From assembly GCA_022828125.1 (NCBI GenBank), contig JAJEJD010000012.1, forward strand, positions 193,309 through 257,308: a stretch of 64,000 bases of DNA, read 5' to 3'. Source of the DNA: a bacterium (lineage in GTDB: Bacteria; UBA8248). Below the pieces are notes generated by a model. The model was not told the DNA's origin. It did not search any database and saw only the letters and a list, made by a program, of their open reading frames with translations. Position numbers and translations under genes: made by a program. This document shows, in pieces, positions 41,447 through 62,101 of the stretch (its first letter is position 1; each line of letters begins with the position of its first letter).

Positions 41447-41844
41447 TTTGCCCTCCTTATGAGAGGCGGGAGGCGGCACCCTTCCATTCCATGATAGTTT
41501 CCCCGATGCTTTCATGCGGGGGGAGCGGTGTCAATGAGGGGTCGAACCCGACCGATGAGGGAGGGTTCGCCGACCGGGGAGGGAGGGGCTGCCGACCGAT
41601 GCAGGGCTGTTGAAAAAGCCCCCTTCTCAGACGGGTAGAAGCGATGCCCCCGACGAGGTTTTTTCGACAACCCCCTCAAGTGGGGAGTGAAATACGACCC
41701 CGCAATTCCCCGCATTTGCCGCCGGGGGACTTTCGCGTCGATGGGATATGCTGGAGAGGCCGTCCGTCGGCCTTCGGTTTTTCAGGCGGCGGAAGGGGCG
41801 TTGCCCGCAGGAATCGGAGGGCCGCCCGGACGAGACGCGGAAGG

Positions 41845-41940
41845 GGCAAAATGCAAATAATAATTCCCGAAAAATTCGATAAATATCGATAAATTCACGG
41901 GGTTTTTCGGTAAATTTCCGGCAATTTTTTAGAGGGGATA
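41845..41940. promoter_or_regulatory. AT-rich island (unusual in this GC-rich window) with a direct repeat TCGATAAAT-at-TCGATAAAT and flanking CCCGAAAAA/TTTTTCGG inverted arms, about 250 bp upstream of the QueG-like tandem genes
   Basis: gcaaataataattcccgaaaaattcgataaatatcgataaattcacggggtttttcggtaaatttccggcaatttttt. Confidence 0.35.
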
Positions 41941-42197
41941 TGACGCTTTTGCAGTGCGGCGCAGGAGCATTCTGCCATGACCCGCCGCGCCCGCGATGAC
42001 CGCAAATGCGGGGAAATGCGCATTCCGCGCAAAAGGGCACCGAACGGCCCATATGATGCGATTTTGCCTCATCGCGGCGTTGTGCTAGATTCAATCCATC
42101 CTCTCGAATGAAAACTCAGGCGTCAGGCGAATGCCGCGAGAGGACGAGCAGTTCCAGGTCAACGCACGGATCCGACAACGGAAACCCGAGGTTACAC

Positions 42198-43100
42198 GTG
42201 GACCGAACCGAGGCCCGAAAACCCATTGATAATCAAGAGGTAAAGCGCACAGCCCGCGAGCTGGGCGCCGACCTCGCGGGGGTCGCATCGGCGGAGGATT
42301 TCGCGGAAGCGCAGCCGGGCTGCCGCCCCAGGGACTTGTTCAACATGGCGAACAGCGTCGTCGTGGTCGCCAAGCGCGTCCCCTTCGCCGCGGCCACGCC
42401 CTATCCCAGCATCGGCGCGATGGAGTTCGGTGAATACATCCCCGAGAATTTCCTGAACGAAGCCTGCTATCGCCTCTCGCTGTTTCTCGAAGATATGGGC
42501 TGGCTCTCGGGCGCCACCCCGTGCGGGCGCGACATCACGAGCTTCCGCGTGGAAGAAGAAGGCGCCGAACCCAGGGTCTTCCTCCAGGGCTCCTTCGACT
42601 TGCGGCTCGCGGCGGTCAAGGCCGGTCTCGGGCATATCGGCGCCAATAACTGCCTGATAACGCAGGAGTACGGCTCTCGCGTCCGCCTGGGCGCGGTGTT
42701 CACCGAGGCGAAGCTCGAACCCGACCCGCCCAACCAGGTCGGCGCGATCCCCGAGTTCTGCCATGAGTGCGGCTTTCGCTGCGTGAAGGCCTGCCCCGCG
42801 AACGCGCTGCCCGGCGACGGCACGGTGGATCACTACCGCTGCATGGTCATCCGGCCGGACCTGGTCGCGCCGGAAAAAGCCCTGGCCCACTTCAAGAAAC
42901 TCTTCCGGGGCAAGCCCATGATCATGGCGGCCAAGGGCCTCTCCTACACCGACAGCCCGCCGCATCCATGCAGCACCTGCATCGCGCTCTGCCCGATGGA
43001 TCAGGGCCGCGATTTCGCGCATAAACCCTTTCACCGCGAATCCTGGACCGATGAAGACGCGCTCAAGGTCATCGATCCGGCCCTGCTGGAGAATCCCTGA
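42198..43100 (+). CDS. QueG-like (epoxyqueuosine reductase family) 4Fe-4S protein, paralog 1
   Basis: GANNCLITQEYGSRVRLGAVFTEAKLEPDPP block plus Cys cluster CHECGFRCVKACP. GTG start aligned to the paralog. Confidence 0.5.
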   Translation: MDRTEARKPIDNQEVKRTARELGADLAGVASAEDFAEAQPGCRPRDLFNMANSVVVVAKRVPFAAATPYPSIGAMEFGEYIPENFLNEACYRLSLFLEDMGWLSGATPCGRDITSFRVEEEGAEPRVFLQGSFDLRLAAVKAGLGHIGANNCLITQEYGSRVRLGAVFTEAKLEPDPPNQVGAIPEFCHECGFRCVKACPANALPGDGTVDHYRCMVIRPDLVAPEKALAHFKKLFRGKPMIMAAKGLSYTDSPPHPCSTCIALCPMDQGRDFAHKPFHRESWTDEDALKVIDPALLENP

Positions 43101-43101
43101 A

Positions 43102-43971
43102 ATGGATAACGGCAAAGGCGCCGGAATTACCTCAGGCGACGTCAAGGCGCAGGCCCGTGAATTCGGCGCGGACCTCGTCAACATTTCCTCGTGCGAGGGC
43201 TACGAGAAAGCGCTCCCCGGCTGCAAGCCCCATGACCTGGTGAAGGACGCCAGGAGCGTCGTCGTCTTCGCGCGCCGGATGCCCTTCGGCAACGCGACGC
43301 CCCGACCCTCGGTGGGTTATCTGGAATTCGGCTATTACGGGCACGAGGCCTGGATCAACAAGCTCTCATACCGCCTGGCGCTCTGGTTGGAGGACGAGGG
43401 ACACATGGCGCTGCCCACGCCTGCCGGACGGGACATCCCCTCGCTCCGCATCCTTCGAGAAGGCGCGGAACCGGAAGTCTTCATGCAGGGTTCTTTCGAT
43501 CTCAGGCTCGCCGCGGTGAACGCGGGCATGGGCGAGATCGGCGTGAACAACAACCTCATCACCGCCGAATACGGCTCGCGTCTGAGACTCGGAGCGGTCG
43601 TCACGACGGCCGCGCTCGAAGCGGACCCGCCCCAAAAATACGGCGTGGTTCCCGATTTCTGCGTGGAGTGCGGCTACAAGTGCATCAAGCCCTGCCCGGC
43701 GGGTGCGCTGCCCGGAGACGGCGCGGTGGATCACTACAAGTGCATGGTGATGTATCCCCAGAAAGTTTCATCGGAAAAAGCCGTCGACGTCTTCAAGACG
43801 CGCTACGGCTACCCCGAACTCCAGCTCGCCGGACGAATGATGGCCTTCACCGAGAACGCGCCGCACATCTGCGCGACCTGCATCACCCTGTGCCCCATGG
43901 ACGAAGCGCGCCGCGTCAAGGAGAAGGCGAACGGCGGCGGGGGCGGTCAACCACTTCCAGTCGTGCCATAA
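43102..43971 (+). CDS. QueG-like 4Fe-4S protein, paralog 2 (tandem)
   Basis: Roughly 55-60% identical to the preceding gene (GVNNNLITAEYGSRLRLGAVVTTAALEADPP; CVECGYKCIKPCP). Confidence 0.5.
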   Translation: MDNGKGAGITSGDVKAQAREFGADLVNISSCEGYEKALPGCKPHDLVKDARSVVVFARRMPFGNATPRPSVGYLEFGYYGHEAWINKLSYRLALWLEDEGHMALPTPAGRDIPSLRILREGAEPEVFMQGSFDLRLAAVNAGMGEIGVNNNLITAEYGSRLRLGAVVTTAALEADPPQKYGVVPDFCVECGYKCIKPCPAGALPGDGAVDHYKCMVMYPQKVSSEKAVDVFKTRYGYPELQLAGRMMAFTENAPHICATCITLCPMDEARRVKEKANGGGGGQPLPVVP

Positions 43972-44083
43972 CGAAACGGAAAAAAATTGCAGTCGAACGG
44001 GAATGACATATAGGACAGTGCGGCGGTATTCCGGGCTCTGGTTTCGAATGGGAGCGATGTAATTACTTTCCCTTTGAGAGGGT

Positions 44084-44160
44084 TGTTGTAGGGGTCGCAC
44101 ATATGCGACCCGACTGGTTTGCGGCATGTGGGCCGCATATATGCGGCCCCTACACACAAA
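44084..44160. repeat. nested palindromes GTAGGGGTCGCACATATGCGACCC ... GGGCCGCATATATGCGGCCCCTAC (R3 type)
   Basis: Two adjacent 20 bp palindromes bounded by GTAGGGG / CCCCTAC. Confidence 0.8.
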
Positions 44161-44236
44161 TAACTTTTCCCTCTCCGGCTTTTTCAACAGCCCCTATGGG
44201 GCTTGTTGAAAAACCCCCTTGAAAGGGAAATCCCAT

Positions 44237-44360
44237 AAAGGCAACCCCCCCTACCCCCCCTTGTCAGGGGGGCAAGAAAAAGCAACCCCCCCTCAGCCCG
44301 GCGGGGGCGCATCGCCTTTTTATACCCCCCTGACAAGGGGGGGTAGGGGGGGTTGGTTTT
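44237..44360. repeat. MITE-like element family R1, copy 5
   Basis: Near-identical to copy 1, including the core CAAGAAAAAGCAACCCCCCCTCAGCCCGGCGGGGGCGCATCGCCTTTTTATA. Confidence 0.85.
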
Positions 44361-44459
44361 CCACGAGGGAGGTCGGGAGTTCGCGCGAACCCGAAGCAAG
44401 TCTCCGGAACCGCATCCTGACGCCGGGTCCGTGGACGGGTCCGCTGCGCGGGCCTGCTC

Positions 44460-45545
44460 CTACTGCCTCGTGGCGACGAAGCCGCCCTTGATTCTGGGCG
44501 CCTCGAACACCCCACCGACCGTGTTCGGGCTCGTCCCCGTAGTGCCCTGGTGGCGGAAAGCGCCGTTGATCTTGCGGCCCCCGGCCGTCGAGCTGAAGGC
44601 GCCGCTCGAATCGATCGACAGGCCGGACCAGGTCTGGTCCGGGTACGTCGAGGGGACTGCGGCGCCCGACTCGATTTTCACAGCCCGGGAGGACTTCAGG
44701 TTCGTGAGAGAAACGCCCGCGCTTCTGGTCGGGAGATTGACGGTGACGCTGGCGTCGCCGCCGATCTCGAAGCCTCTGGTCACCCACTGGGCAGGGTCGT
44801 TCTCGAAGGCGATCACCTTGCCCGTCCAGGTCGCGCTCCCCGTCCCGGTGGGCTGCACGCCGGCGCCGGGCGCCTGAAGGTGCGCCTCGACCAGGAAGAA
44901 ATCGTTGGTGATATCATGGCCGCTCTCCTCAAGTATTTTCTTAAGCTGCACGGAAAACAGCCGCTTCCCGGTCTCTTGCGGCACCCGGGCGCGGATATGG
45001 ACCTTCATGTCGCCGGCGGCGCCGGGCGGATAGGTCATCCACAGGTCGTCGACGTTCATACTGTAAAAAACGAACTCGTCACCGTCGGAGTTCGCGTCCG
45101 TGTACTTGAGGTTCCAATATCGGGTTCCGCCTTTTCTTATCCGCGCCTGAATGTCCGGCCGGAGGCTCATGGGGGGGTTGAAAGAGTTCAGGTTGATCGT
45201 TTTCGCCGTCGCACCGGCGGGAAAGCCGGGGGGAGTGCCGGTACCGACCGAAGTCGATTTGGCCGTCACACGCGGTGTCCGCGGCGCGACCTGCAGCTGC
45301 GAGACCTGCAGCTGCGAGACCCTCGGGAAGACCGGCGGCAGGGCGGGCGCCGGCTGGGGCGTGGCGGCAGGCCGTGCCTCGAGCGCGGCGGCAGGCTGCG
45401 GAGCGGGCCGGCTCATCACGGGTTGCGGGAGACTGAGTCCCCCGCCCCCTCCCCCGCAGGCGGTGAGAAACAACGCCAGCAGCGCGACGGAAGCGAAGCC
45501 CCCCGCCGGCGACGGTCTGTGGAACAGGGTATCCAGCGTTTTCAT
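44460..45545 (-). CDS. hypothetical lipoprotein with a low-complexity Pro/Ala-rich linker
   Basis: Lipobox LFLTACGGGG. Internal 15 bp tandem duplication gives SQLQVSQLQV. Confidence 0.5.
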   Translation of the reverse strand: MKTLDTLFHRPSPAGGFASVALLALFLTACGGGGGGLSLPQPVMSRPAPQPAAALEARPAATPQPAPALPPVFPRVSQLQVSQLQVAPRTPRVTAKSTSVGTGTPPGFPAGATAKTINLNSFNPPMSLRPDIQARIRKGGTRYWNLKYTDANSDGDEFVFYSMNVDDLWMTYPPGAAGDMKVHIRARVPQETGKRLFSVQLKKILEESGHDITNDFFLVEAHLQAPGAGVQPTGTGSATWTGKVIAFENDPAQWVTRGFEIGGDASVTVNLPTRSAGVSLTNLKSSRAVKIESGAAVPSTYPDQTWSGLSIDSSGAFSSTAGGRKINGAFRHQGTTGTSPNTVGGVFEAPRIKGGFVATRQ

Positions 45546-45889
45546 TTCAAGGTGCTCCCCATGGTGAATGGAAAATGAATGCGGCAGAAGACGGAAAAAC
45601 CCGCAGGCGCGGGCGCTTCAAGTACAACGGATGAGGGATAACGACAGGCGGAAGACGGCCCCGCCGGAGGGCGGGGACCCGGACCCGATCGGAAGCGGCG
45701 CTCCCGGTGGCGGCCGGCGCGGTCCACGGCGTCAGCCGGGCGGACGCGATGCTCGGCTCGAATCAGTTTCAGGTGCGCCCTTGCTTTCAAGTCGTACTTG
45801 CCCCCGTATGAAGGACTCCGCACCGGCGCCGTCGCCGGGCGGTATTACGGGGTCATGGCCAGATGTATTGGAAGGCCGTATGTAGGGTT

Positions 45890-45995
45890 ATGCCTCGTGG
45901 GTAGTATATTTTCATCTGTAGCATATACTATGGAAACAGTATGCATCATTGATCCTGAAATGTATATACCCTGTCGGGGAGCTTTTTTGTTTTTT
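45890..45995. promoter_or_regulatory. AT-rich island with an inverted repeat GTAGTATAT-N13-ATATACTAT and a downstream G/C hairpin plus T-run (ccctgtcggggagcttttttgtttttt)
   Basis: Lies upstream of the minus-strand lipoprotein gene. It is the only other strongly AT-rich patch in the window. Confidence 0.3.
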
Positions 45996-46253
45996 GCGTG
46001 TTTTTTCGGCGCCGGGAAGGGCGGTTTCGACGCCGGGGCGTCCGGATCGGCCCAGGGAGGCGTATCGGGAGCTTGTCTTAAGCCTGTCGAGGGGGACGCG
46101 GGAAAACAGCTTTCCCGCCCCCGCTCGCCGTGAACCCTCCTTCCCTGAGGTTGTTGAAAAACCCCTGCTTTCGTCATTCTGCGTATAGAGCCAACCGGGG
46201 AAAGAGGAGACAACATTTCCCCCTTGAAGAGTGCCAACCAAACACTCCCCCCT

Positions 46254-46590
46254 TGAGGAGGCTGTTGAAAAAGTCACCCTTGGTCGGAATTGACCACCGC
46301 CGTCATTCCGGCGAAAGCCGGAATCCATTTTGACTTTTCACCGGGCGGGGCGATCACGACCTTTTTGTCGCGCGGCGCCGGGATGCGGAACCCAGAGAAT
46401 TCGCCTTTCGTTTTTGTGTTCGATTCCGATCCTCCCCGACCGGGCGTAAAGACGTCCGAACGAAGAGGCGAAAAGGCAAAGGCGAAAATGGATTCCGGCT
46501 TTCGCCGGAATGACGGCCAAAACCCGAAACCGGGCGGAGGCGCAGGTGTCACTTCCTCCTCGATGGACTTTTTCAACAAGCCCCCTCAAG
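46254..46590. repeat. composite mosaic repeat region: GTTGAAAAAG hairpin module, an inverted pair of 32 bp TCATTCCGGCGAAAGCCGGAATCC arms (46299..46331 and 46485..46518), and a GGCCAAAACCCGAAACCGGGCGGAGGCGCAGG module
   Basis: The modules recur in other intergenic regions (52136..52215, 61855..62000, 1240..1320, 50755..50790). Confidence 0.75.
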
Positions 46591-46754
46591 GGGGAAGTGA
46601 ATTCCCTCTCTCATGAATTGCGCCCGATCCTCAAGGGAGAGTGAAAAAACCCCAAGCATGAAGGGGTGATTCTGGAAAGGGATTTATGAATTGACCGGCA
46701 AGAAAAACTCGTCAACTTGAGTATATAATTCCCTTTCTTTCTCTGGAGCCTCTC

Positions 46755-47987
46755 ATGCCGAAACCGCTGGAAGGATACCGGGTGCTGGACTTGACCCAGT
46801 TCTACTCGGGGCCCTGGACGACGCTCCTGCTCGCCGGTCTGGGGGCGGAAGTCATCAAGGTGAACCACCCGGCCACGGGCGACGTGGTGGCCATGGGGCC
46901 TCCCTACGCCGGTCCCGAGGGCGTGTCCTTCCACAAGCAAACCGAGGACGATCTGGGAATCGCCTACTTGAAGAGAACCAGAGACAAGAAATCCCTGACG
47001 CTCAATCTCAAGGAGCCGCGCGGGCTGGAGCTGTTCTACCGCCTGGTGGATGAGGCCGACGTGCTCGTCGAGAACTTCTCGGTGGGCGTAACGAAAAGGC
47101 TCAAGATCGACTACGAGACGCTCGAGAAGCGCAACCCCCGGCTCGTCTACTGCTCCATCACCGGCTACGGGCAGAGCGGCCCCGATGCGCGGCTCAAGGG
47201 CTACGACGCCGTCACCCAGGCGGTCTCTGGGCTCATGAACCTGACCGGCTTCCCGGACGGCCCCCCTACCAAGGCGGGTTCCGCCATCGCGGACAGCATC
47301 GGGGGCACCTTCGCCTACGGCGCCATCACCACCGCGCTCTTACACCGCGAGCGAACGGGCGAGGGCCAGTGGGTGGACGTCTCCATGGTGGACTGCCTCC
47401 TGTCGCTCGTGTTCGATGAGCCGATGGACTGCTACGAGGCGCTGGGGCTGCCCGACAGGCTGGGGAACCGCATCATGCGCCTATCGCCTTTCAACGCATA
47501 TCCCGCGAAGGACGGCTGGCTGGTGATCGGCTCGGGCACGGATGAGCACTGGAACAACATCCTGCGCGCCGTGGGACGCGGGGAACTGGTGGGCGACCCG
47601 CGTTATGCGGACCTGAGCGGCCGCATCACGCACAACGACGAGGTGGACGCCGTCATCACGCAGTGGACGGAAAAGCACACCGTGGAAGAGGCGCTCTCAG
47701 CGCTTCGCCGTTTCGACGTCATCTGCGGACCAGTCCACACCATCCGGGACATCCTCGCCTGGCCGCATCTCAAGGCGCGGAACATGATCGAAGACCTCCC
47801 CCACCCCGCGCTGGGAAATCTCAGCGAAGTCAAGACGGCCGCCTTCCCGCTCAAATTCAGCAAAACCCCCGGCGGCTACGACGCCCCCGCGCCGCTGAGC
47901 GGCCAGCACAACGAGGAGATTCTCGGCGACCTGCTCGGCCTCGCGAAAGAGGAGATCGACCGGCTCAAGGAAGACGGCGTTATCTGA
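46755..47987 (+). CDS. CoA transferase family III (CaiB/BaiF-type), paralog of 6340..7572
   Basis: MPKPLEGYRVLDLTQFYSGPWTTLLLAGLGAEVIKV...; 410 aa, the same length as the paralog. Confidence 0.85.
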   Translation: MPKPLEGYRVLDLTQFYSGPWTTLLLAGLGAEVIKVNHPATGDVVAMGPPYAGPEGVSFHKQTEDDLGIAYLKRTRDKKSLTLNLKEPRGLELFYRLVDEADVLVENFSVGVTKRLKIDYETLEKRNPRLVYCSITGYGQSGPDARLKGYDAVTQAVSGLMNLTGFPDGPPTKAGSAIADSIGGTFAYGAITTALLHRERTGEGQWVDVSMVDCLLSLVFDEPMDCYEALGLPDRLGNRIMRLSPFNAYPAKDGWLVIGSGTDEHWNNILRAVGRGELVGDPRYADLSGRITHNDEVDAVITQWTEKHTVEEALSALRRFDVICGPVHTIRDILAWPHLKARNMIEDLPHPALGNLSEVKTAAFPLKFSKTPGGYDAPAPLSGQHNEEILGDLLGLAKEEIDRLKEDGVI

Positions 47988-48224
47988 AGCGACGCCCCCG
48001 AAACCCATGGGCGATGAAATTCGAAACAATTTCTTGTTCATCAATCCCGACAGGGAAGGAAGAATTCCCTCTCTCTTGAGGGAGTTTTTCAACAACTCCA
48101 TGATCGACAAGCTATTACTCGAACGCGGGCGCAGATTACCACCCGGAACGCGAATGGTCCGGTCTTGCAAGACTTGCAAAGCATACGGCCTTGCCCTATA
48201 TTCATTCCCAAAAGGGGATGAATT

Positions 48225-48815
48225 ATGCCTATCACGGCCGATTTGACGATTCGAGAAACCGCCGCCCTCTCGGGAGTGCCTCGGACGACGATTGAAAAAA
48301 CCGTGGAAGCCCGCGTCTTGCGGCCCCTCGCCGGCCCGGTCCGTCTCCGTGGTGGCACGACGCGCTATCTCCCAATCCGCGCCGTAGTCTATTTCCACGC
48401 CCTGAAGGCAGCCAACCTTACGGACCTCCCTTTGCGCCATAAGCGGGCGATTTGGACGAATATGATTCGGATCGAGCCCATGCAACTCGAGACAATCGAA
48501 TTTACGCCCGGCGCGACGCTCGATCTCGATCGCCTAGCGGCGGACGCTCTGTGTAAGGCTGAACGATACCGAAAAGCCCGAGATCGATACATCACATCAG
48601 ATGAGAATATCCTCGGCGGCACACCGGTTATCGCCGGGACACGGTTGACGGTTTACGCGATTCTTGGGCGGCTGCAGGACGGAGACAGCGTCGATGATCT
48701 CGTAGAGGACTATCCTGAAATCCCGCGCGAAGCGTTCGAGGCCGCCGAGATATACGCCAAAACTCATCCTCTTCGAGGACGCCCGTCCGGCAGACCCTGG
48801 CGAAACGTGGCCTGA
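48225..48815 (+). CDS. DUF433 domain protein (putative antitoxin-like partner)
   Basis: C-terminal ILGGTPVIAGTRLTVYAILGRLQDGDSVDDLVEDYPEI is the DUF433 signature. Confidence 0.6.
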   Translation: MPITADLTIRETAALSGVPRTTIEKTVEARVLRPLAGPVRLRGGTTRYLPIRAVVYFHALKAANLTDLPLRHKRAIWTNMIRIEPMQLETIEFTPGATLDLDRLAADALCKAERYRKARDRYITSDENILGGTPVIAGTRLTVYAILGRLQDGDSVDDLVEDYPEIPREAFEAAEIYAKTHPLRGRPSGRPWRNVA

Positions 48816-48832
48816 GCGGCGGTTGTAGCCGG

Positions 48833-49222
48833 GTGATGCGGATGTTTCTTGATGAGTGTCTGTCCCCCAGAATTGCCCAAACCCTGAATGCCGAGGGGGA
48901 TCATGTTGCTCTTCATCCGCGCGATTTCGGTGGGCTGGGTGCGTCGGATCACCACGTATTGGCCAGATGTATCGAGCAGGACCTCGTACTCGTGACGGCC
49001 AACGCGCGCGATTTCCGCGCCCTTGCCGCCGCACGGGACGTGCATCCCGGCCTCGTCATCTTGCCGAGTGTGGGCCGAGAACGTTCGGAGGCGCTGCTGC
49101 GTGGCGCAATCGCTTTCTTGTCCCAACACGGCGACCCGATGGACGTCATAGTCAACCATGTTCTCGAAGTATCGGCAGAGGCGGAGATGACGCTCTCGAT
49201 GTTGCCGACGCAAGAGCAGTGA
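48833..49222 (+). CDS. DUF5615 (PIN-like) domain protein (putative toxin-like partner)
   Basis: MFLDECLSPRIAQTL...VLVTANARDF matches the DUF5615/Mut7-C-like pattern. Starts 18 bp after the DUF433 gene. Confidence 0.55.
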   Translation: MMRMFLDECLSPRIAQTLNAEGDHVALHPRDFGGLGASDHHVLARCIEQDLVLVTANARDFRALAAARDVHPGLVILPSVGRERSEALLRGAIAFLSQHGDPMDVIVNHVLEVSAEAEMTLSMLPTQEQ

Positions 49223-49322
49223 GCGTTCGACAACGCCTCCGCCATACACTTCAATTTGAAGAAGGGGGGTCAAACCCTGCCGGTTTAGTCGAAATCACAC
49301 CCACGAATGGAGAATCACTCGA

Positions 49323-50501: not shown

Positions 50502-50805
50502 CTTTTCCCTGCGAGTTGAAGAAAATCAAATTTTCCATGTGTGCTTGACGTTTGAAGCACCCGGCTTCCCTTACCGCCTCACCTGATGAATCCATCGCCA
50601 TACGGATTCAGAAGCCGTCACCGATATGTTCATATTTGTCTTGGTAGCGGTGTAAGACTATTACGAATTCATCCAGCAAAACAAATGGAGAATGCAGGTA
50701 TATTGATCTGGAAACAGCCGATTTTCCGGGAATGGAAATAACCGACGGAACCGCCCACTGGGGGGCTGTTGAAAAAGTCCTGTCCGACCATCGAGATTGT
50801 TCGCC

Positions 50806-50904
50806 GTAGCAGGGACAGGCCTTTGCGCCTGTCCGAGGCCTCCGTGCCTGTCCTGCTCTTCGTGGTTGTCCTTCGTCAGGACAGGCACGGAGGCCTGTCC
50901 CTAC
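50806..50904. repeat. long inverted repeat of family R4 (GTAGGGACAGGCC...GGCCTGTCCCTAC)
   Basis: The right arm CAGGACAGGCACGGAGGCCTGTCCCTAC (50877..50904) is identical to 37444..37471. The left arm is its reverse complement with a 17 bp insertion. Smaller R4 units lie at 40138..40170, 40468..40500 and 62017..62050. Confidence 0.8.
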
Positions 50905-50982
50905 AAAACCATCACGTCTGCGCCGCGTGAACCTCCTTGCCGACGAGACCGCCCTCTGACGCCGGCTTTCACCCCCGAAGGA

Positions 50983-51861: not shown

Positions 51862-52221
51862 GATTTTCTCCTGTACTCAAAAAATCAGTGTCTTTCGATT
51901 ATCGGAAATTTGCGCGGCGACCGAGGACGCGCCGGCAAATCACCGGAGAACGAATTCAATCCACCATCAGCTTGCCCGGAGCCTCGAACACGGGCTCAGG
52001 GGCGGCGGGCATGCGGTTGACGCGGGCGCCAACCGCCTGTCTGAAGGCGTGGGCGACTACAGCGGCTGCGATCCTGACGCTTCGGGCATATCGTTGATGA
52101 GACTGCCACAGCCGGGCGAGCGCCCCCATCTTTCCCGCCTATTGGGGCTGTTGAAAAAGTCATCCCTGGTCGCAATGACGGCCAAAACCCGAACCCGGGC
52201 GGAGGCGCAAGCTGTCTCCTT

Positions 52222-52341
52222 GAAAACCAACCCCCCTACCCCCCTTGTCAGGGGGCAAGAAAAAGCAAAACCCTCTCGGCTCGGAGGGGGCGCATCGCCT
52301 TTTTATACCCCCCTGACAAGGGGGGGTAGGGGGGGTTGCCT
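52222..52341. repeat. MITE-like element family R1, copy 6
   Basis: GAAAACCAACCCCCCTACCCCCCTTGTCAGGGGG ... CCCCCCTGACAAGGGGGGGTAGGGGGGGTTGCCTTT, then ATCCCCTG. Confidence 0.8.
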
Positions 52342-52377
52342 TTATCCCCTGACAAAACGGGCTTTTTCAACAGCCCC

Positions 52378-53907
52378 CTATTCGGCGTCGGCTCCGCCGG
52401 TGATCCCGAGCCTCGCCGCCCGGAACATCGCGGCCATGCTGTAGACCGCCGTGATGAGGGAGAGCACGAGAATGGTCGCCGTGATGGGGCTGGAGAGGAG
52501 CGCCCACATGTCCCCGCCCGAGATCGTGAGCGCGCGGCTCAGGTTGATCTCGATAATCGGCCCCATGATGAACGCGAGCACGATGGGCACGACGGGAATG
52601 TTAATCTTCTCGAAGAAGTAGGCGAGTGCGCCCAGGATGAGCACCATGACGACGTGGGCCGTGTAGTTCGCGTACACGTAGCTGCCGACGACGATGAGGA
52701 TCAGGACGAACGGCCCCAGGATGCGGCGGGGCACCTTGGCGACCAGGCTGAAGGCGCGGGTGCCGACGAGTCCCGTGCAAAGGAGCATGAGGTTGATCAC
52801 GAAAAGGCCGATGAACACCGTCATCACGAACGTCCCGTTGTCCCGGAAGAGCAGCGGCCCGGGAACCAGTCCCTTGCTGATCAGCACGCCCAGCAGAATG
52901 GCCGCGCCGCCCGAACCCGGGATGCCGAGCGAGAGCGAGGGCACGAGCGTGCCTGCGACCAGGGCGTTGTTCGAACACTCGGGCGCGGCGACGCCCTCGA
53001 TGATGCCCGTGCCGAACTCCTCCGAGCGCTTCGACCACCGCCTCTCCTCGCTGTAGGCCAGCATGCCGGCGATGGAGCCGCCCGCTCCAGGAACCGCGCC
53101 GACACCCGTTCCGATCAGGCTCGCGCGAATCCATGTGGGGATGAGCCTGCGGACTTCCCACCGCTGAATCCGGTTGCGCTCATCGGCGGCGCCCTGGGCG
53201 GCGGTTTCCTTGCTCTCGATAGTGCGCCGGTGCTCCACCAGGAGGTTGAACGCCTCGGGCCCGGCCAGGAAGGCGATGATGACGACGACCAGCGGGATGC
53301 CGTCCATCAGATACCCCTGGTCAAAGGTGAACCGCAGTCCGCCGAAGCCCGAACTCCCGACCGTCGCCAGCAACAGCCCGATGCCCGTGGCGAGGAAACC
53401 GCGTGCGGCGTCTTTTCCGAAGAAGCTCGCCACGATCGACAGGCCGAACACGCCGACCGCGAATAATTCGCCCGGCCCGAACATCAGGGCGACGTTGCCG
53501 AGCGAGGTGCCTGCGATGATGAAGATCAGCGTGCTCGTGACGCCGCCGATGACGCCCGAGTAGAGGGAGATGCGCAGCGCCTTTCGCGCGAGACCGTTGC
53601 GGGTCATGGTGTAGCCGTCGAGCACGGTGACGGCGGACGCACCCGTCCCCGGCGTGCGGATCAGGATGGCCGGAATGGAGCTTCCGTATTCGACCCCCGA
53701 ATAGACGGCGAGGAAGAACATGGTCGCGTGCTCCACGGGCATCGTGAAGGTCAGGGGAAAAAGGAGGGCCAGCGCCTGGGAACTGCCGAAACCCGGCATG
53801 GCGCCCATGAGGACGCCGATGGCGACGCCCCCCAGCATGATCGCGAGAATGGCGGGCGAAGCGAGTTGGCCGGTCGCTGCGAATATGTGCCCGAGAGTTC
53901 CTTCCAT
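52378..53907 (-). CDS. tctA: tripartite tricarboxylate transporter permease TctA
   Basis: 509 aa polytopic protein with the TctA duplicated-domain pattern (GAMPGFGSSQALALL...). Confidence 0.8.
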   Translation of the reverse strand: MEGTLGHIFAATGQLASPAILAIMLGGVAIGVLMGAMPGFGSSQALALLFPLTFTMPVEHATMFFLAVYSGVEYGSSIPAILIRTPGTGASAVTVLDGYTMTRNGLARKALRISLYSGVIGGVTSTLIFIIAGTSLGNVALMFGPGELFAVGVFGLSIVASFFGKDAARGFLATGIGLLLATVGSSGFGGLRFTFDQGYLMDGIPLVVVIIAFLAGPEAFNLLVEHRRTIESKETAAQGAADERNRIQRWEVRRLIPTWIRASLIGTGVGAVPGAGGSIAGMLAYSEERRWSKRSEEFGTGIIEGVAAPECSNNALVAGTLVPSLSLGIPGSGGAAILLGVLISKGLVPGPLLFRDNGTFVMTVFIGLFVINLMLLCTGLVGTRAFSLVAKVPRRILGPFVLILIVVGSYVYANYTAHVVMVLILGALAYFFEKINIPVVPIVLAFIMGPIIEINLSRALTISGGDMWALLSSPITATILVLSLITAVYSMAAMFRAARLGITGGADAE

Positions 53908-54485: not shown

Positions 54486-54534
54486 GTCCGCGCCTTAATG
54501 ACGGCGGAACCTGCCGCCGTCCGCTCAAATCCAG

Positions 54535-55536: not shown

Positions 55537-55851
55537 TCCTTCAAGGGGTGGGTATGAACGGGGCAGGTAACGACCCCCACTTCTCAGGGTGATAGGTATG
55601 ATTCACGATACCATTTCTCGGTAAAATTCACAAATAGGCGTTTTCGGACCGCCGTTTCGCATGCGTCGGAGCGCTTCGCCACCGGAACGAACTCCATGTC
55701 GAAGCGCGCAGCGAATGGCCTGTTCGGGGTGCAAAAGTCCTTCGAATCCTGTCTAATGTCGACATCATGAAAATCCCGAAGCGCGAAGGACCCCGAAGAG
55801 CCTGAGAGGAATTGCGGCTTTCCGCTAAAGAACAACCGGAGGCATTCATCC

Positions 55852-56742
55852 ATGACCGACAGCAGCGTCTTGTCCTACAGCGGCGTCACGGACTTGGGCG
55901 GCGGCAAAGCCTATGGCCTCCACAACGTCTTCGAGCTCGACGGGCGGATCAGCGCCTATCCCCTGAGCGCCAGGGGGTTCGCTCCGTCCAACTGCTACCT
56001 CCTTTGCGAGGAGGACGGCGCGATTCTGCTCGACACGGGCTATGGCGGGCACAGGGATTCCCTCTTCGGGCAGATAGGCTCCATCATCACGCCCGACACC
56101 CCGCTGTCGATCTACCCGCTCAGGCTGAACGAGTTCATGTCCGTGGGGAATGCGGCCGCCCTCGCCAGGGAGTTCAACGTCGTGGAGTGCTTCGCCCGGC
56201 GGCCCGACATGGATTTCTGGCTCGATTTCGACGTGGAGGAATTCGGCCCCAAGAGCGAGGAAGATCAGATATTCCCGACGACCGTCCTCGGAAACGAGCT
56301 CGAATGCACCGTTGGGGGCAACGAGAGTCGGGTTATCCGCGGCATCAACGCGCCCATCCGCCTCATCACCACCATGTGGATCTACGACGAGGCCACCCGC
56401 ACCCTGTTCTCCTCCGATATGTTCAGCCATGTGTGGGGGGACAACCCCGAAGGCCCCTGGGCGGTGGCGGACGAGTCGGTGACGACCACCGCATTCGTGC
56501 GCTCGTTTTTGCTGAACACGCGCTACTGGTGGCTCGAGGGCGTAGAGACCGGAATGATGCGCAAGGGCATCGCCGACGTCTTCGAGAGCTACGACATCGA
56601 GAACATCGCCCCCGGTTACGGCGCCATCCTCCTCGGGCGCGAACAAGTCGAACGCCAGTTCTCGGTGTTAGATGACGTTCTGCGCGATCTGGATCGCTCC
56701 GTCGCCGAGCCGCGCTACGTTCCCCGCAACATGGAAAGGTGA
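55852..56742 (+). CDS. MBL-fold (ODP/flavodiiron-type beta-lactamase-like) protein, paralog 1
   Basis: 296 aa. The pattern SNCYLLCEEDGAILLDTGYGG resembles the beta-lactamase-like domain of diiron proteins. Weak assignment. Confidence 0.4.
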   Translation: MTDSSVLSYSGVTDLGGGKAYGLHNVFELDGRISAYPLSARGFAPSNCYLLCEEDGAILLDTGYGGHRDSLFGQIGSIITPDTPLSIYPLRLNEFMSVGNAAALAREFNVVECFARRPDMDFWLDFDVEEFGPKSEEDQIFPTTVLGNELECTVGGNESRVIRGINAPIRLITTMWIYDEATRTLFSSDMFSHVWGDNPEGPWAVADESVTTTAFVRSFLLNTRYWWLEGVETGMMRKGIADVFESYDIENIAPGYGAILLGREQVERQFSVLDDVLRDLDRSVAEPRYVPRNMER

Positions 56743-57518
56743 TCATGGACCCGAACAACAATCCGCTTCCGCGCGAAATCGCTCCCGGCATCCTCTGGCT
56801 CGGCATCTGCCACGAACAGCACCACAAGGGAAAGATCTACCACAGCTACAATGCGGCCTTTCTCCTCATCGGAAAAGAGGGCGCGATGCTGGTCGAGACG
56901 GGCCACCAGGGGGATTACCCGGTCATTTCCCGCCAGATTCGCGAAATCCTGGACGAACGCGGCTCGGCGCTCAAATATCTCTTCCTCTCGCACCAGGAAA
57001 CGCCCCATTCGGGCGGGCTTGGCCGGCTGCTCGAAGACTACCCCGAGATGACGGTCCACTGCGACGTGAGCGACTACCATCTCTCCTACCCCGAGCACGC
57101 CCACAGGCTGAGGCGCATGGAAGTCGGCGACACAGTCGACTTAGGCGACAGGCAGTTCATTGCCGTCGAACCCGTCATCCGCGACCTGAGAACATCGCTC
57201 TGGGGGTTCGACACCGGCGCGCGCGCCCTCTTCCCGGGAGACGGGTTCGCCTACAGCCACTACCACTGGGACGGCCACTGCGGACAAATCGCGGAAGAGG
57301 CCACCTCGCTCGATCTGGCGGATGTCCTGGGCGTGTTCGCGGAGCGCGCGCTGTTCTGGACGCGGTTCGCCGACATGAACATTTATTCGGATCGCCTGGA
57401 AGAACTGATCGAAGAGCTTGACGTCGCCGTGGTCGCGCCTGCCCACGGTCTTCCGATTCTGGATCTGGCGGTCACCATGCCCAAGGTGCGCGAAGGTCTC
57501 ATTGCCGGAAATCTTTGA
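56739..57518 (+). CDS. MBL-fold (ODP-like) protein, paralog 2
   Basis: AFLLIGKEGAMLVETGHQGD...LFLSHQETPHSGG. Overlaps the upstream stop (ATGA). Confidence 0.4.
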   Translation: MIMDPNNNPLPREIAPGILWLGICHEQHHKGKIYHSYNAAFLLIGKEGAMLVETGHQGDYPVISRQIREILDERGSALKYLFLSHQETPHSGGLGRLLEDYPEMTVHCDVSDYHLSYPEHAHRLRRMEVGDTVDLGDRQFIAVEPVIRDLRTSLWGFDTGARALFPGDGFAYSHYHWDGHCGQIAEEATSLDLADVLGVFAERALFWTRFADMNIYSDRLEELIEELDVAVVAPAHGLPILDLAVTMPKVREGLIAGNL

Positions 57519-57527
57519 GGAGGGCCG

Positions 57528-58721
57528 ATGGACTTTTCCCTGACCGACGAACAAAAAGCGCTCCAGAAACTCGCGCGCGATTACGTCGAGCGGCACGTGC
57601 GCCCCATCGCCGCGGAGTACGACAAGAACCCGGATCCCCTCGACTGCATCCCCTACGACGTCGTCGAGGAAGGCTCGAAGTTAGGCTTGCGCACGCTGGC
57701 GCTGTCCGATGAGCGCGGCGGCGGGGCCGACATGCTCACTCTCTCCATCGTCGGCGAGGAGCTCGGCGCCGGCGATCTCGGCGTGGCCGCCACCTTCGAT
57801 CAGACATGGAAGTTCACCCCCATCCTCGAGCACTGGACGAACGACGAGCAAAAAGAGCGCTTCCTCCCGGCGTTCGTCTCGGACCACCGCTATCACCTGG
57901 CGACGTGCATGACGGAACCGGACGCAGGCACCGATCACGTGCTCCCCTACCCCGCTCCCGGCGCGGGCGTGCAGATGCGCGCAGATCGCGACGGGGACGT
58001 CTACCGCCTGAGCGGCGTCAAGAGCTTCATCAGCAACGGCGGGACGGCCAGGCTCTACATCGTCTACACGCGCACCGACAAGACGCAAGGGGGCTTGAAG
58101 GGCATGACGCCGTTCCTCGTTCCGGCGGACACGCCGGGCCTGAACGTCGGCCGTGTCCACGACAAGATGGGCAGAAGGCTTCTCAGCAACGCCACCCTCG
58201 TCTTCGAGAACGCGGAAGTCCCCGCCGTCAACCGGCTGGGAGAGGAAGAGGGCCAGGCCGAGGCGCTTCGCACGAGCCGCATCGCCCGGGGAAGGGGCGG
58301 CTACGGGGCGACCGTGCTGGGCGCGGGCCGGGCCGCCTTCGAGGAGGCCGTGCGCTATTCACAAGAAAGGGTGCAGGGCGGGAAACCCATAGGCCAACAT
58401 CAGGCCGTCGCCCAGATGATCGGGGAGATGTACACGAGGATCGAGACGGCGCGCTCGGTTCTCTGGCGCACCTCGTGGGCTGTGGATCACGCCGAGGAAT
58501 ACGATCCCAAAATGTCGTGGCTCACCAAGGTGGTCTGCTCGGAGGCCGCGTATGAGGTCTGCCGTCTCGCACTGGAAGTGCACGGCGGACTCGGCTATAT
58601 GCGCGAGTGCCCCGTCGAGAAATACCTGCGCGACGTCATCTCGTTTCTCCACGGCGCAGGCAACAACCACATCTACCGGATCAAGATAAGCTCGAGGATC
58701 ACCGGCCTGCCGGCCGAATAA
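57528..58721 (+). CDS. acyl-CoA dehydrogenase family protein
   Basis: LATCMTEPDAGTD, plus the C-terminal ...RDVISFLHGAGNNHIYRI ACAD pattern; 397 aa. Confidence 0.8.
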   Translation: MDFSLTDEQKALQKLARDYVERHVRPIAAEYDKNPDPLDCIPYDVVEEGSKLGLRTLALSDERGGGADMLTLSIVGEELGAGDLGVAATFDQTWKFTPILEHWTNDEQKERFLPAFVSDHRYHLATCMTEPDAGTDHVLPYPAPGAGVQMRADRDGDVYRLSGVKSFISNGGTARLYIVYTRTDKTQGGLKGMTPFLVPADTPGLNVGRVHDKMGRRLLSNATLVFENAEVPAVNRLGEEEGQAEALRTSRIARGRGGYGATVLGAGRAAFEEAVRYSQERVQGGKPIGQHQAVAQMIGEMYTRIETARSVLWRTSWAVDHAEEYDPKMSWLTKVVCSEAAYEVCRLALEVHGGLGYMRECPVEKYLRDVISFLHGAGNNHIYRIKISSRITGLPAE

Positions 58722-58783
58722 CGCCTCGATGAACGTCTCAGAGCGAGACGGACTTCGCCAAAGTCTTTTCCAGGCCGCCCGGG

Positions 58784-59176
58784 TCAGGCCTGTATGAGTT
58801 CGATGGGCATTTCCTCGGGGCCCTCGATGAAGGCGGCGAACTTGCCGCTCACGTGGACGGGCATCTCCTGGATAATTGTCACCCCATTGGCGCGCATATC
58901 CTCCAGTAATCCTGGCAGGTCATCCACTACGAAGCAGAAGTGATGGATTCCGTACCCCTTGGGGCGGGGGCCGTCCGCTTCCGTGAGTCCGTCCGAGGGC
59001 CGGGGGGTGCGCACGCTGAGCGTCCCTTCCCCCACCCGGAGGACGAGGTTGCGCGCCCCGGCCGGAAACTGCTCGGCCACTATCTCACTCCCGAAGAAGC
59101 GTTCGAACCAATCGGCTACCCCGTCGGGATCCCTGCTGATCATATGGACATGATGAAATGCGCCGACAATCGCCAT
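58784..59176 (-). CDS. VOC family (glyoxalase/bleomycin-resistance fold) protein
   Basis: FHHVHMISRDPD...GIHHFCFVVDDL paired beta-alpha-beta-beta-beta pattern. Confidence 0.65.
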   Translation of the reverse strand: MAIVGAFHHVHMISRDPDGVADWFERFFGSEIVAEQFPAGARNLVLRVGEGTLSVRTPRPSDGLTEADGPRPKGYGIHHFCFVVDDLPGLLEDMRANGVTIIQEMPVHVSGKFAAFIEGPEEMPIELIQA

Positions 59177-59518
59177 TTTCTTGATTTCTCCTCTGCGCCA
59201 AAGTCAACACCGTATATTCAGCCGCACTCCCCTCCCTGCCACCTTTCAAACCGCGCACTGCGCAAAAACCCGACCGAACCTTCAAGCCTGCAATCGGAGG
59301 GGAATCGCCATCCTGTGTGTATTTCACCATATGCAGGGTAAGGAGAATCGATTACGGGAGCAAGGTGACGAAAGACCTGAATTCAAAATAGAATCATCAA
59401 TTCGCCGAGTGCGAGTCCGAGACCAGGGAACACGCCGCTTGAACGGCTCCCCCGCCCCGGCTTTACATTGCGGCGTATGAGCCCGGCTATCGACTTTACT
59501 TCCTGAAGGAGACCGAGA

Positions 59519-59944
59519 ATGCCGAAACAGATCGAATGTGTGGACTGGCCCGACAGGCTCGACGTCTGGACGCCCTACTCGATGGCCATCAAGGCGAGCG
59601 GGGGGACGACCGTCTATTTCGCGGGCGTCACGGCCGCGCCGCCCTATCACCACCACCCCCACCGGCCAGAGGAGTTCGACACGCTGCCGGACGATCTGCC
59701 CACCCAGACGCGCATGGCCCTCGAGAACTTGAAGAAAAGCCTCGATGCCGTGGGCGGGGCGTTCAGCGACATCGTCTTCTTCCAGTTCTTCTCGACGACG
59801 ATGGAGGGCGCCGAGGAGGCGGGGGCCATCCGTAAGGAGTATTTCGGCGACCATCGGACCGCCTCCACCACGCTTCAGGTCGTGCGCCTCGCCACCGACC
59901 CCAGGTGCCTAGTGGAGGTCAACGCGATAGCGGTCGTGGATTGA
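59519..59944 (+). CDS. RidA/YjgF family protein
   Basis: 141 aa; VYFAGVTA...RTASTTLQVVRLATDPRCLVEVNAIAV has the RidA C-terminal signature. Confidence 0.65.
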   Translation: MPKQIECVDWPDRLDVWTPYSMAIKASGGTTVYFAGVTAAPPYHHHPHRPEEFDTLPDDLPTQTRMALENLKKSLDAVGGAFSDIVFFQFFSTTMEGAEEAGAIRKEYFGDHRTASTTLQVVRLATDPRCLVEVNAIAVVD

Positions 59945-60096
59945 GGAGGACCCTCGGCCATTTTCCGGGGCGCGGCGCGAGCATATGATCGCCATTTTTT
60001 CATTGCCCGCTCCCGCCGCTCTCGGCTATCATCCCGTCTGGTCAAACGAGGACATACGAGGACGACTCGAGGCGCACCTACCCTTCACCCCGGGGA

Positions 60097-60978
60097 ATGG
60101 AGCGTCATACCCAACCCAGAGGAGCCACGGCGGTGGACATCATCAACGAAGTCGGCGCAACCGCATTTTTCGTATCCTCCATCCGCGCCATGGAGAAGAA
60201 GCAGGAACACAAGCTGTTCGACGACCCTTACGCGGCGTGGTTCGTGAACGAGGAAATCGAGGGAAAGGTGCAAGAGCAGATAGAAGTTTTTCCGCCCTCG
60301 AGGGAGCTGGTGCGTTTTCGGGTTTGCGTCATGAGCGAGGTCGTCGAGCGCGCCATCGCGGACGGCGTGAAGCAGATCGTCTCGCTCGGCGCGGGCTTCG
60401 ACATGCGCGCCCACATCTATCAGACCGAGGGCGTCCGGTTCTGCGACGTCGACCAGCCTGCGGTCCTGCAGTTCAAGAACAAGGTGCTCGAAGCAGGCGG
60501 CGTCACGCCCTGCGCCGGGATCGAGTGCAATTACCTGGAAGTCGACCTGCCCCGGGAACTCCGCCAGGCGGGTTTCGACCTCGAAGCGCCCATCCTGTTC
60601 ATATGGGAAGGCAACACCATGTACCTCCCGCTCACACTTATCCATGACTTCCTCGATAAAATGCGCACGCAGGTTCCCAACATGACCATCGCTTTCGATT
60701 ATCTCTCCGAAAAGGTGATCAACCGCACCTCGGGTGATGAGAGAATCAGCGAATTCACGGACCTTTTTGAAAGCAACTTCGGGGTGAAATGGGTGACGGG
60801 CTTCGACGACCTCTCCGTTCTGACGGAAAAACACGGCCTCGAAGTAGTGAAATCTGAAAGCCTCCTGGAAGTCGGCGAGCGGCGCGCACCGGAATCCGCA
60901 GCGGCCATCGAGGAGTTTATGGACGTCACGGCCGACCTGTTGAAACTCTACTCCTACTGCGTCCTCAAGGCGGCCTGA
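60097..60978 (+). CDS. class I SAM-dependent methyltransferase (LCM/Ppm1-like O-methyltransferase family), paralog 1
   Basis: DDPYAAWFV..., IVSLGAGFDMRA, PILFIWEGNTMYLP are typical of LCM-family methyltransferases. Confidence 0.7.
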   Translation: MERHTQPRGATAVDIINEVGATAFFVSSIRAMEKKQEHKLFDDPYAAWFVNEEIEGKVQEQIEVFPPSRELVRFRVCVMSEVVERAIADGVKQIVSLGAGFDMRAHIYQTEGVRFCDVDQPAVLQFKNKVLEAGGVTPCAGIECNYLEVDLPRELRQAGFDLEAPILFIWEGNTMYLPLTLIHDFLDKMRTQVPNMTIAFDYLSEKVINRTSGDERISEFTDLFESNFGVKWVTGFDDLSVLTEKHGLEVVKSESLLEVGERRAPESAAAIEEFMDVTADLLKLYSYCVLKAA

Positions 60979-60983
60979 GTTCC

Positions 60984-61826
60984 ATGGACATCAACGAAAT
61001 CGGCGCGACCGCGTTCGTCATTTCCTGCATGCGGGCGATGGAAAAAGACCAGGAGCACAAGCTGTTCGACGACCCCTACGCGGCGTGGTTCGTCAACGAG
61101 GCGATAGAGGAGAAGGTCCAGGAACTGATACGCGTTTTCCCGCCCTCGGTGGAACTGGTTCGTTTCCGGGTTCGGGTCATGAGCGAGGTCGTCGAGCGCG
61201 GCATCGAGGACGGCGTGAAGCAGATCGTCTCTTTGGGCGCGGGCTTCGACATGCGCGCCCATATCTATCAGACCGAAGGCGTGAGGTTCTGCGATGTCGA
61301 TCAACCGGCGGTGGTCGAATTCAAGAACAAGGTGCTCGAAACCCACGGCGTCACGCCCTGCCCCGGAATCGAGTGCAACTACCTGGAAGTCGACCTCCCG
61401 GGAAAACTCGCCGAGGCGGGCTTCGACCTCGAAGCCCCCATCCTGTTCATATGGGAAGGCAACACCATGTACCTGCCGCTCGACCTGATTCATGATTTCC
61501 TGAGTCGATTGCGCGCGCGCATTCCGCGCCTGGCCATCGCCTTCGATTATTACTCCGAAAAGATCATCAACCGCACGTCCGGCGATGAGAGGATCACCGA
61601 AATCACGGATATGTTCGAAAGCAACTTCGGGGTGAAATGGGTGACGGGTTTCGACGACCTCTCCGTGTTCCAGGAAAAACACGGCCTCGAAGCAATCGAA
61701 TCCGAAAGCCTCATGGAGTTCGGCGAGCGCCACGCGCCGCAGTCCGTGGCGGCTGTCAAAGAGTATATGGGCCAGGCGGCCGACCTGTTGAAACTGTATT
61801 CCTACTGCGTGCTCAAGGCGTCGTGA
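60984..61826 (+). CDS. class I SAM-dependent methyltransferase (LCM-like), paralog 2 (tandem duplicate)
   Basis: About 75-80% amino acid identity to the upstream gene, with runs above 90% nucleotide identity (for example 60390..60445 versus 61230..61285). Confidence 0.7.
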   Translation: MDINEIGATAFVISCMRAMEKDQEHKLFDDPYAAWFVNEAIEEKVQELIRVFPPSVELVRFRVRVMSEVVERGIEDGVKQIVSLGAGFDMRAHIYQTEGVRFCDVDQPAVVEFKNKVLETHGVTPCPGIECNYLEVDLPGKLAEAGFDLEAPILFIWEGNTMYLPLDLIHDFLSRLRARIPRLAIAFDYYSEKIINRTSGDERITEITDMFESNFGVKWVTGFDDLSVFQEKHGLEAIESESLMEFGERHAPQSVAAVKEYMGQAADLLKLYSYCVLKAS

Positions 61827-62101
61827 ACTTTACGTCCACCCCGGCGGCGCTTCTAAAAAGCTTGGACTTAGAAATCACTCCCCTCTTGAGGGGGTTGTTG
61901 AAAAACCCCATCGCAGAGGAAGTGACGCCTCCGCCTCCGCCCGGTTTCGGGTCTTGGCCGTCATTCCGGCCGAGGATGACTTTTTCAACAGCCCCTTGAG
62001 AGGGAAAAGGCCACACGAGAAAAAGCAGGGACAGGTCGCGACCTGTCCCTGCCAGAAACGCAAAATTCGACGATATCTAAAACAAGCTTACCGCCAGATT
62101 C

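Follow-up and report, generated by a model that had tools for sequence, protein, structure and literature searches.

A recurrent intergenic motif in an uncultured bacterium as the probable terminal inverted repeat of IS1182-family insertion sequences

The stretch of DNA considered here (64,000 nucleotides; positions 193,309 to 257,308 of contig JAJEJD010000012.1, assembly GCA_022828125.1, a metagenome contig listed in ENA as ERZ23491403, scaffold_592; hereafter the window) belongs to a bacterium of the GTDB lineage UBA8248, whose close relatives are labelled Nitrospinota/Nitrospinae. At least 83% of the window is coding by a codon-position GC gene model, yet a short motif with the consensus GGGG(C/T)TGTTGAAAAA(G/C)YC occurs in it 16 times, in both orientations and always between genes, in 10 intergenic gaps that include those beside genes for TctA, a CoA-transferase and an LCM-family methyltransferase. 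The motif is very probably the terminal inverted repeat (TIR) of insertion sequences (ISs) of the IS1182 family, and its copies in the window are best read as non-autonomous ends, comprising four MITEs (miniature transposable elements with inverted repeats) of 72–328 bp together with solo and decayed ends (Table 1).

An earlier note on this DNA had described a recurring hairpin motif at about 16 sites, in both orientations and embedded in or next to repeat arrays, and each of these points holds. The sequence GTTGAAAAAG has nine exact occurrences in the window against 0.07 expected, and the 20-mer GGGGCTGTTGAAAAAGCCCC has 10 with up to three mismatches against none expected. A relaxed search for the core TGTTGAAAAA with up to one mismatch returned 18 sites, of which 16 carry G/C arms; the other two (17736 and 42336) lie inside genes, lack the arms and were rejected as chance matches. 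The distribution is not a random spread: all 16 armed copies are intergenic and associated with repeats. Their orientation relative to the neighbouring genes is mixed, with several copies upstream of genes and several between divergent genes. The coordinates in the note are right within a few bases, except that the site placed at 48038 is really at 48080–48099, and two sites (31480–31499 and 41655–41674) had been left out. A longer module reported at three sites finds no match as written, even with three mismatches in an ungapped comparison; with 1-nt indels it is common to 46260, 52146 and 61967–61993 (minus strand), and 50762 does not share it. Decayed remnants missed by the one-mismatch search are also present, namely GGGATAATTGAAAAAGCCCC (37682–37700, minus strand), GGGGTTGTTGCAAACCCG (40541–40558) and GGGTTGTTG (44081–44089), the last cut off by a REP-like repeat of the kind described below.

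The wider occurrence of the motif was examined by scanning one genome per GTDB species with the 18-mer GGGGCTGTTGAAAAAGYC. More than 117 stretches of GTDB genomes contain it among the matches listed, and these include Nitrospinota, Bacteroidales, Planctomycetota, Hydrogenedentota, Syntrophales and Rickettsiaceae, so that the motif is not confined to this contig. Many of the matches lie approximately 40–140 nt from contig ends, and within groups of matches the downstream sequence is common while the upstream sequence differs. This shared downstream and differing upstream sequence, together with the placement at contig ends, is how the end of a repeated mobile element behaves. In 11 of the fetched loci (designated by L and a number), tblastn identified the coding sequence of an IS1182-type (DUF772/DDE) transposase, which begins approximately 30–80 nt from the motif in the loci inspected (e.g., L038, L061 and L032). 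The open reading frame (ORF) of L038 encodes 485 aa, scores 356.6 bits against the NCBIfam model NF033551 ‘IS1182 family transposase’ (cutoff 270) and also matches the Pfam families DUF772, DDE_Tnp_1_6 and DDE_Tnp_1. The left end of its element is GGGGCTGTTGAAAAAGTCCCC; the right end, written as the reverse complement, is GGGGTTGTTGAATAACCCC.

Eight full-length elements of 1.5–1.8 kb with one ORF each were delimited (L038, L061, L064, L076, L032, L089, L119 and L090). All eight are bounded by GGGGCTGTTGAAAAAG-type sequence in inverted orientation, and most are flanked by 5-bp repeats (TTGAG, TTGAG, TTAAC, ACGGA and CGGGG). Two rhizobial elements annotated as IS1182 family by the Prokaryotic Genome Annotation Pipeline have the same ends: the one on pSymB of Sinorhizobium medicae (CP140907) carries GGGGCTGTTGAAGAAG at both ends with the direct repeat TACGT, and the one on a plasmid of Bradyrhizobium sp. 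62B (CP092842) ends in GGGGTCGTTGAAAAAG and ...GAAGAAG with the direct repeat CGCGT. Because the same ends occur on full-length elements in related metagenome-assembled genomes (MAGs) and on these annotated rhizobial elements, the motif is assigned to the family as its TIR. A possible resemblance to the inverted repeat of IS903 carries no weight in this assignment. In Planctomycetota and relatives (L111, L086, L039, L019, L057 and L070) the motif was observed in the loop of a longer hairpin (e.g., GGTGACAGTGGGGCTGTTGAAAAAGTCCCACTGTCACC in L111), and the outer flank follows the recurring pattern GG(G/T)GACAG(T/C); these loci represent either a longer TIR in that clade or a specific palindrome that is targeted.

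Four inverted pairs of TIRs bound non-coding DNA of 72, 105, 234 and approximately 328 bp in the window, all of it made of palindromic repeat DNA, and the paired TIRs agree at roughly 13–17 of the first 18 positions (counted by hand over the four pairs). In both the 105-bp and the 72-bp element, one end is of the left type (CT..AG) and the other of the right type (TT..AA) found in the L038 IS. What looks like covariation in the window, CT..AG versus TT..AA, is simply this difference between the left and right end subtypes of the parent IS. Two of the four pairs are flanked by perfect direct repeats of 5 bp (TTGAG and CTATT), which have the same length as those of seven full-length ISs. A tblastn search of the window with the L038 transposase gave no match at E ≤ 1, and since there is no transposase in the window, its copies are classed as MITEs and solo ends and not as ISs.

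The elements in the window are related to one another. Alignment distinguishes four related copies within the 64 kb: the basal 105-bp unit, the ~328-bp element, the 234-bp element and a copy at approximately 1272–1505. The ~328-bp element is the 105-bp unit (61891–61995) broken by a nested insert of ~220 bp (about 46291–46511), and the 234-bp element consists of the left half of the 105-bp unit, a copy of an inverted-repeat element termed B (52218–52359) as cargo, and a different right arm. The copy at approximately 1272–1505 is the same composite as 52144–52377 with the left TIR lost. The nested ~220-bp insert displays an inverted pair of GTCATTCCGGCGAAAGCCGGAATCCA (46302–46327 and 46489–46514) with CGGAAT on each side, and is probably a second kind of MITE.

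Table 1. Coordinates in the window of the elements, terminal inverted repeats and associated repeat families.
Feature	Position	Strand	Details
105-bp MITE, basal unit	61891–61995		TIRs 61891–61910 (+, right-end type, GGGGTTGTTGAAAAACCCC) and 61976–61995 (−, left-end type, GGGGCTGTTGAAAAAGTCAT); direct repeats TTGAG at 61886–61890 and 61996–62000
234-bp composite MITE	52144–52377		TIRs 52144–52163 (+) and 52358–52377 (−), 17/18 positions matching; direct repeats CTATT at 52139–52143 and 52378–52382, the second overlapping the TctA stop codon
~328-bp element	46258–46585		TIRs 46258–46277 (+) and 46564–46585 (−)
72-bp mini-element	41603–41674		Left-type TIR AGGGCTGTTGAAAAAGCCCC 41603–41622 (+); right-type TIR GGGGTTGTCGAAAAAACCTC 41655–41674 (−)
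Back-to-back TIRs facing outwards	44175–44194; 44198–44218	−; +	3-bp spacer TAT: CAACAGCCCC-TAT-GGGGCTTGTTG
Single TIR GGGGCTGTTGAAAAAGTCCT	50762–50781	+	Edge of the 178-bp block 50762–50939
Solo TIR GAGGTTGTTGAAAAACCCCT	46147–46166	+	
Solo TIR GGAGTTGTTGAAAAACTCCC	48080–48099	−	97 nt past the 3' end of the CoA-transferase gene
Degenerate TIR GGGATTGTTGAAAAAATGTCCC	40169–40190	+	Adjoins B element 40201–40365
Degenerate TIR GGGGTTGTAGAAAAAGCCTC	31480–31499	+	Adjoins B element 31512–31723
TIR GAGACTTGTTGAAAAAGTCCCC	1484–1505	−	Right end of the composite copy ~1272–1505
B element copies	1313–1455; 31512–31723; 37521–37662; 40201–40365; 44235–44376; 52218–52359		
REP-like repeats	27744–27814; 28243–28266; 31411–31436; 31740–31767; 37409–37481; 40142–40167; 40479–40503; 44088–44153; 50879–50904; 62028–62053		

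Mobility was examined at the TctA gene by retrieving, by exact sequence, contigs from several samples that encode the identical TctA protein of the window, and aligning the adjoining gaps. Five contigs (L164, which is GCA_022820345.1, L165, L169, L170 and L171) carry an empty allele that reads ...GACGCCGAATAGGCGGGGAAGATGG... directly after the stop codon, with AATAG present once in the empty-site reading GCCGAATAGGCGGGGAAGATGG. The contig of the window (L168) and L167 carry the filled allele, ...GACGCCGAATAG[234-bp element]AATAGGCGGGAAAGATGG..., in which the left flank reads GCCGAATAG and AATAG stands on both sides. The gap lengths differ by 239 bp, that is 234 + 5, and the flanks are otherwise nearly identical; the 234-bp element is also absent from more distant relatives (95–96% TctA identity). 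The two alleles form a textbook case of an empty and a filled site with target duplication of 5 bp, and they show that the composite, including its B cargo, moved as one unit set by its two TIRs.

Other gaps vary between strains as well. The gap between a highly conserved 125-aa gene and the LCM methyltransferase gene (61827–62101 in the window; 1579–1990 in L175–L184), which contains the 105-bp MITE, is between 136 and 409 bp long depending on the strain, and the repeat cassettes in it differ. A small palindrome, CCCTC-TTGAG-AGGG, houses the 105-bp MITE in its loop, and in L182 a different TIR-bounded element occupies the same palindrome. No exact empty site for the 105-bp element was found among the loci with an identical 125-aa neighbour, and L065 (85% nucleotide identity in the flanks) and L160–L162 display different repeat content at this site and no clean empty site. 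Elsewhere in the window, the 178-bp block at 50762–50939, which contains REP-like palindromes and whose left part is homologous to a two-ended MITE in L182, is missing in the sibling strains L164 and L165. It is flanked by an imperfect direct repeat of ~20 bp (CCGACGGAACCGCCCACTGG at 50742–50761 and CCGACGAGACCGCCCTCTGACG at 50940–50961), far longer than the 5-bp duplications seen elsewhere.

By analogy with the family, a DDE transposase supplied by a full-length copy elsewhere in the genome would bind the two TIRs, excise or copy the element and insert it with a 5-bp staggered cut, which would give rise to the 5-bp direct repeats observed here. Several observations weigh against the assignment to IS1182. 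Full-length copies have been found only in related MAGs (L038, L061, L064, L076 and L032) and none is shown in the window’s own genome, of which the window and short flanks were covered. A clean 5-bp duplication is lacking at two of the four pairs of TIRs and at every solo end: the ~328-bp element has no direct repeat and its flanks are inverted copies of CCCCCTTGA, while the 72-bp mini-element has no clear direct repeat and its right flank is half of the palindrome CACTCCCCACTTGAGGGGG. Published examples of the family report direct repeats of 4 bp and not 5 bp (PMC3281130; PMC11578231). In the JGI metagenome collection, a search with the MITE core GCCTCCGCCCGGTTTCGGG gave 36 matches, all unrelated (terminators or coding regions), and turned up the internal sequence of these elements nowhere else. 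Finally, every copy can fold into a small hairpin, which may have a secondary role.

This hairpin potential, noted earlier, is present in the sequence at all 16 sites, each of which can form a stem of 4–6 bp with a 7–8 nt A-rich loop (−2.9 to −9.9 kcal/mol with RNA parameters, including some G-U pairs). It raises the alternative that the motif functions by itself as a hairpin in RNA or DNA, such as a terminator, an mRNA-stabilising stem-loop or the structured RNA tag that the earlier note had suggested, with the link to transposons being secondary. This is supported by the foldable stem in all 16 copies and by position 19, which is C in 62% of 130 copies and extends the palindrome. Three copies are moreover terminator-like just downstream of gene 3' ends, at 52376–52359 (minus strand, directly after the TctA stop), 48069–48084 (plus strand) and 44229–44214 (minus strand). 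However, two of these three owe the resemblance to a neighbouring palindrome (on the plus strand of the 48080–48099 site it is the adjacent palindrome plus TTTTTCAACA that reads terminator-like), and at the 16 sites a T-run usually does not follow the stem, the copies face either way relative to the neighbouring genes and several of them precede a gene. Stem positions 5/16 are mostly non-Watson-Crick in copies that were not selected by the search pattern (T-G 26 and C-C 18 versus T-A 6 and C-G 13), compensatory variation was not found in the stem of these copies, and the inner arm is altogether absent from the rhizobial family members. Rfam gave nothing at gathering thresholds over the whole window and spurious sub-threshold matches only in 40000–62500 (E ≤ 1), and there are no tRNA or tmRNA genes in the window. 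The RNA tag was abandoned on the missing Rfam match, the mixed orientation and the lack of compensatory changes, and a functional hairpin as the primary explanation is very unlikely. The small internal palindrome GGGCT...AGCCC is part of the TIR consensus of this clade and not an independently selected hairpin, and the three copies just after gene ends could possibly have an incidental terminator effect, judging from their sequence. A promoter, with TTGAAA as a −35 box, was also considered and rejected, since the motif copies show no overlap with promoter-like sites. A palindromic operator, bound by a transcription factor that acts on neighbouring metabolic genes, would suit intergenic, partly palindromic sites with several copies between divergent genes, but the same 18-mer lies beside unrelated genes in many phyla and at IS ends, the neighbouring genes share no functional theme, and in the window the motif delimits non-coding cassettes that some strains have and others, identical apart from this, lack. 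The chance that the motif is such an operator is negligible.

The earlier note had also proposed a protein-binding hairpin, for example a target of a REP-associated tyrosine transposase (RAYT). Its general part stands, in that a recurrent, non-random recognition sequence of this kind is very probably protein-bound; what fails is the type of protein proposed and the part assigned to the hairpin. Under the RAYT hypothesis the motif would be a repetitive extragenic palindromic (REP)-like hairpin that is recognised as single-stranded DNA and spread by a Y1/HUH transposase, and the motif does share with REPs an intergenic position, both orientations, frequent inverted pairs and a small foldable G/C stem. 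REPs are defined by a conserved 5' GTAG followed by an imperfect palindrome of 30–40 nt (PMC3333891). The motif has no GTAG head, a stem of only 4–6 bp and no such palindrome, and the same sequence ends elements that encode a DDE transposase of the IS1182 family. Its 5-bp target duplications are the signature of staggered cutting by DDE transposases; Y1/HUH elements are not known to make any target duplication. A different family in the window fits the REP description far better: 13 REP-like repeats consist of GTAGGG followed by a perfect stem of 8–11 bp, span 24–26 nt in all and often form inverted pairs. These GTAGGG repeats, and not the flagged motif, are plausible candidate RAYT targets by their sequence. 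Spread of the motif by a RAYT is extremely unlikely, and the sequence is read here as the double-stranded TIR of a DDE-type IS1182-family transposon.

With the motif read as an IS1182-type TIR, its association with repeat arrays is explained by insertion into palindrome loops. A run of at least four C ending 3–6 nt before the TIR was found in 32% of outer flanks, compared with 2.2% at random positions (high-GC loci). TTGAG, TTGTC and GACAA are the commonest 5-mers adjoining the TIR and form the loops of two palindromes that recur, CACTCCCCCTTGAGGGGGAGTG and CCCCCCCTTGTCAGGGGGG; the full-length ISs of L061 and L064 sit in CACTCCCCCTTGAGGGGGAGTG and that of L076 in CCCCCCCTTGTCAGGGGGG. A preference for the loops of short G/C-run palindromes is thus shown statistically, though it is partly inferred, and because of this preference the elements nest in other intergenic repeats and build mosaic repeat clusters. 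Targeting of REPs is known for the IS3, IS110, IS4, IS256 and IS5 families, and IS1182 is not mentioned in that survey (PMC1525189). We lean towards the view that this IS1182 clade and its MITEs are still active in transposition in natural populations of an uncultured, Nitrospinota-labelled lineage, with a built-in preference for C-run/G-run palindrome loops, including the hairpins of other repeats. If so, the elements would nest in each other, take other repeats as cargo and create hypervariable intergenic ‘landing pads’.

Several further repeats and genes were observed near the motif copies. The B element is present in six copies as an inverted repeat of approximately 140–210 bp, with arms CCTTGAAAACCAACCCCCCCTACCCCCCCTTGTCAGGGGGG and its complement; it usually adjoins an IS1182-type TIR and also occurs in related MAG loci (e.g., L004, L069 and L084). 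Another widespread repeat, at 40630–40840 (...CTCACCCTGAGTAGCGGC...GCCGCGTATCGAAGG...), has inverted copies, and its sequence adjoins the TIR in many related loci (L007, L018, L036, L043, L058 and L068). The outward-facing TIRs at 44175–44218 would be either the point where two elements abut or some junction-like arrangement; they resemble the joined ends of IS circles, or two insertions side by side. Between the CoA-transferase gene and a beta-lactamase-family gene, 48225–49222 encodes a DUF433 protein and a DUF5615/PIN-like protein, which look like a toxin-antitoxin pair. In the relatives L159 and L160 the region from TctA to the CoA-transferase is rearranged and contains only two small ORFs without a family match. 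At 60097–61826 lie tandem paralogous genes of LCM-family methyltransferases with 84% nucleotide identity over 300 nt.

Annotation should give the motif as the end of an IS1182-type transposon; it is no candidate for a riboswitch, an RNA tag or a target of RAYT, and any ORF called across these repeats is to be regarded as spurious. Strains whose flanking protein is otherwise identical differ in these elements, which makes the elements usable as strain markers. The insertion polymorphism reveals ongoing transposition in an uncultured lineage, and the preference for G/C palindrome loops offers a simple explanation for the build-up of mosaic intergenic repeat clusters.

Abundant short intergenic repeats with inverted pairs, mosaic clusters and hairpin potential are also typical of REPs and bacterial interspersed mosaic elements (BIMEs) with their RAYT (TnpA-REP), from which the motif differs in lacking the GTAG head, in its link to a DDE and not a Y1 transposase and in its target duplications. 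Parallels are also provided by ISs that target REPs or other palindromes (e.g., IS1397, ISKpn1 and ISPpu9; PMC1525189), given the preferential insertion in the loop or at the centre of short palindromic repeats rich in G/C and the independent insertions here in one small palindrome in different strains. Classical REPs are not what is hit here, however; the targets are hairpins of the C-run/loop/G-run kind, some of which belong to other MITE-like repeats. With IS1182-family ISs the elements share the inverted terminal sequence GGGG(C/T)(T/C)GTTGAA(A/G)AAG and a short target duplication, and the cognate full-length elements in related MAGs encode one DUF772 + DDE transposase that scores above the NCBIfam cutoff; the window copies differ in having no transposase and in measuring 72–328 bp as against 1.5 kb. 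ISPse1 of Paracoccus, a member of the family, measures 1653 bp, and its inverted repeats are of 16 bp and its direct repeat of 4 bp (PMC3281130), whereas the duplications here are of 5 bp, and rhizobial members lack the inner CCC arm that is present in the TIR of this clade. IS1182-derived MITEs are already known: MITEPye1 of Paracoccus yeei is an intergenic element with 18-bp TIRs and 4-bp direct repeats (PMC11578231). Like it, the elements described here are small, non-coding and intergenic, with IS1182-like TIRs of approximately 18 bp and short direct repeats, and are presumed to be mobilised in trans. Unlike MITEPye1, they come from a different host phylum (MAGs labelled Nitrospinota), have different internal sequence and 5-bp direct repeats, and are nested and mosaic with other repeat families as cargo, and for them empty/filled polymorphism is documented among natural strains. 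They are ordinary mobile DNA and not a new regulatory or RNA element.

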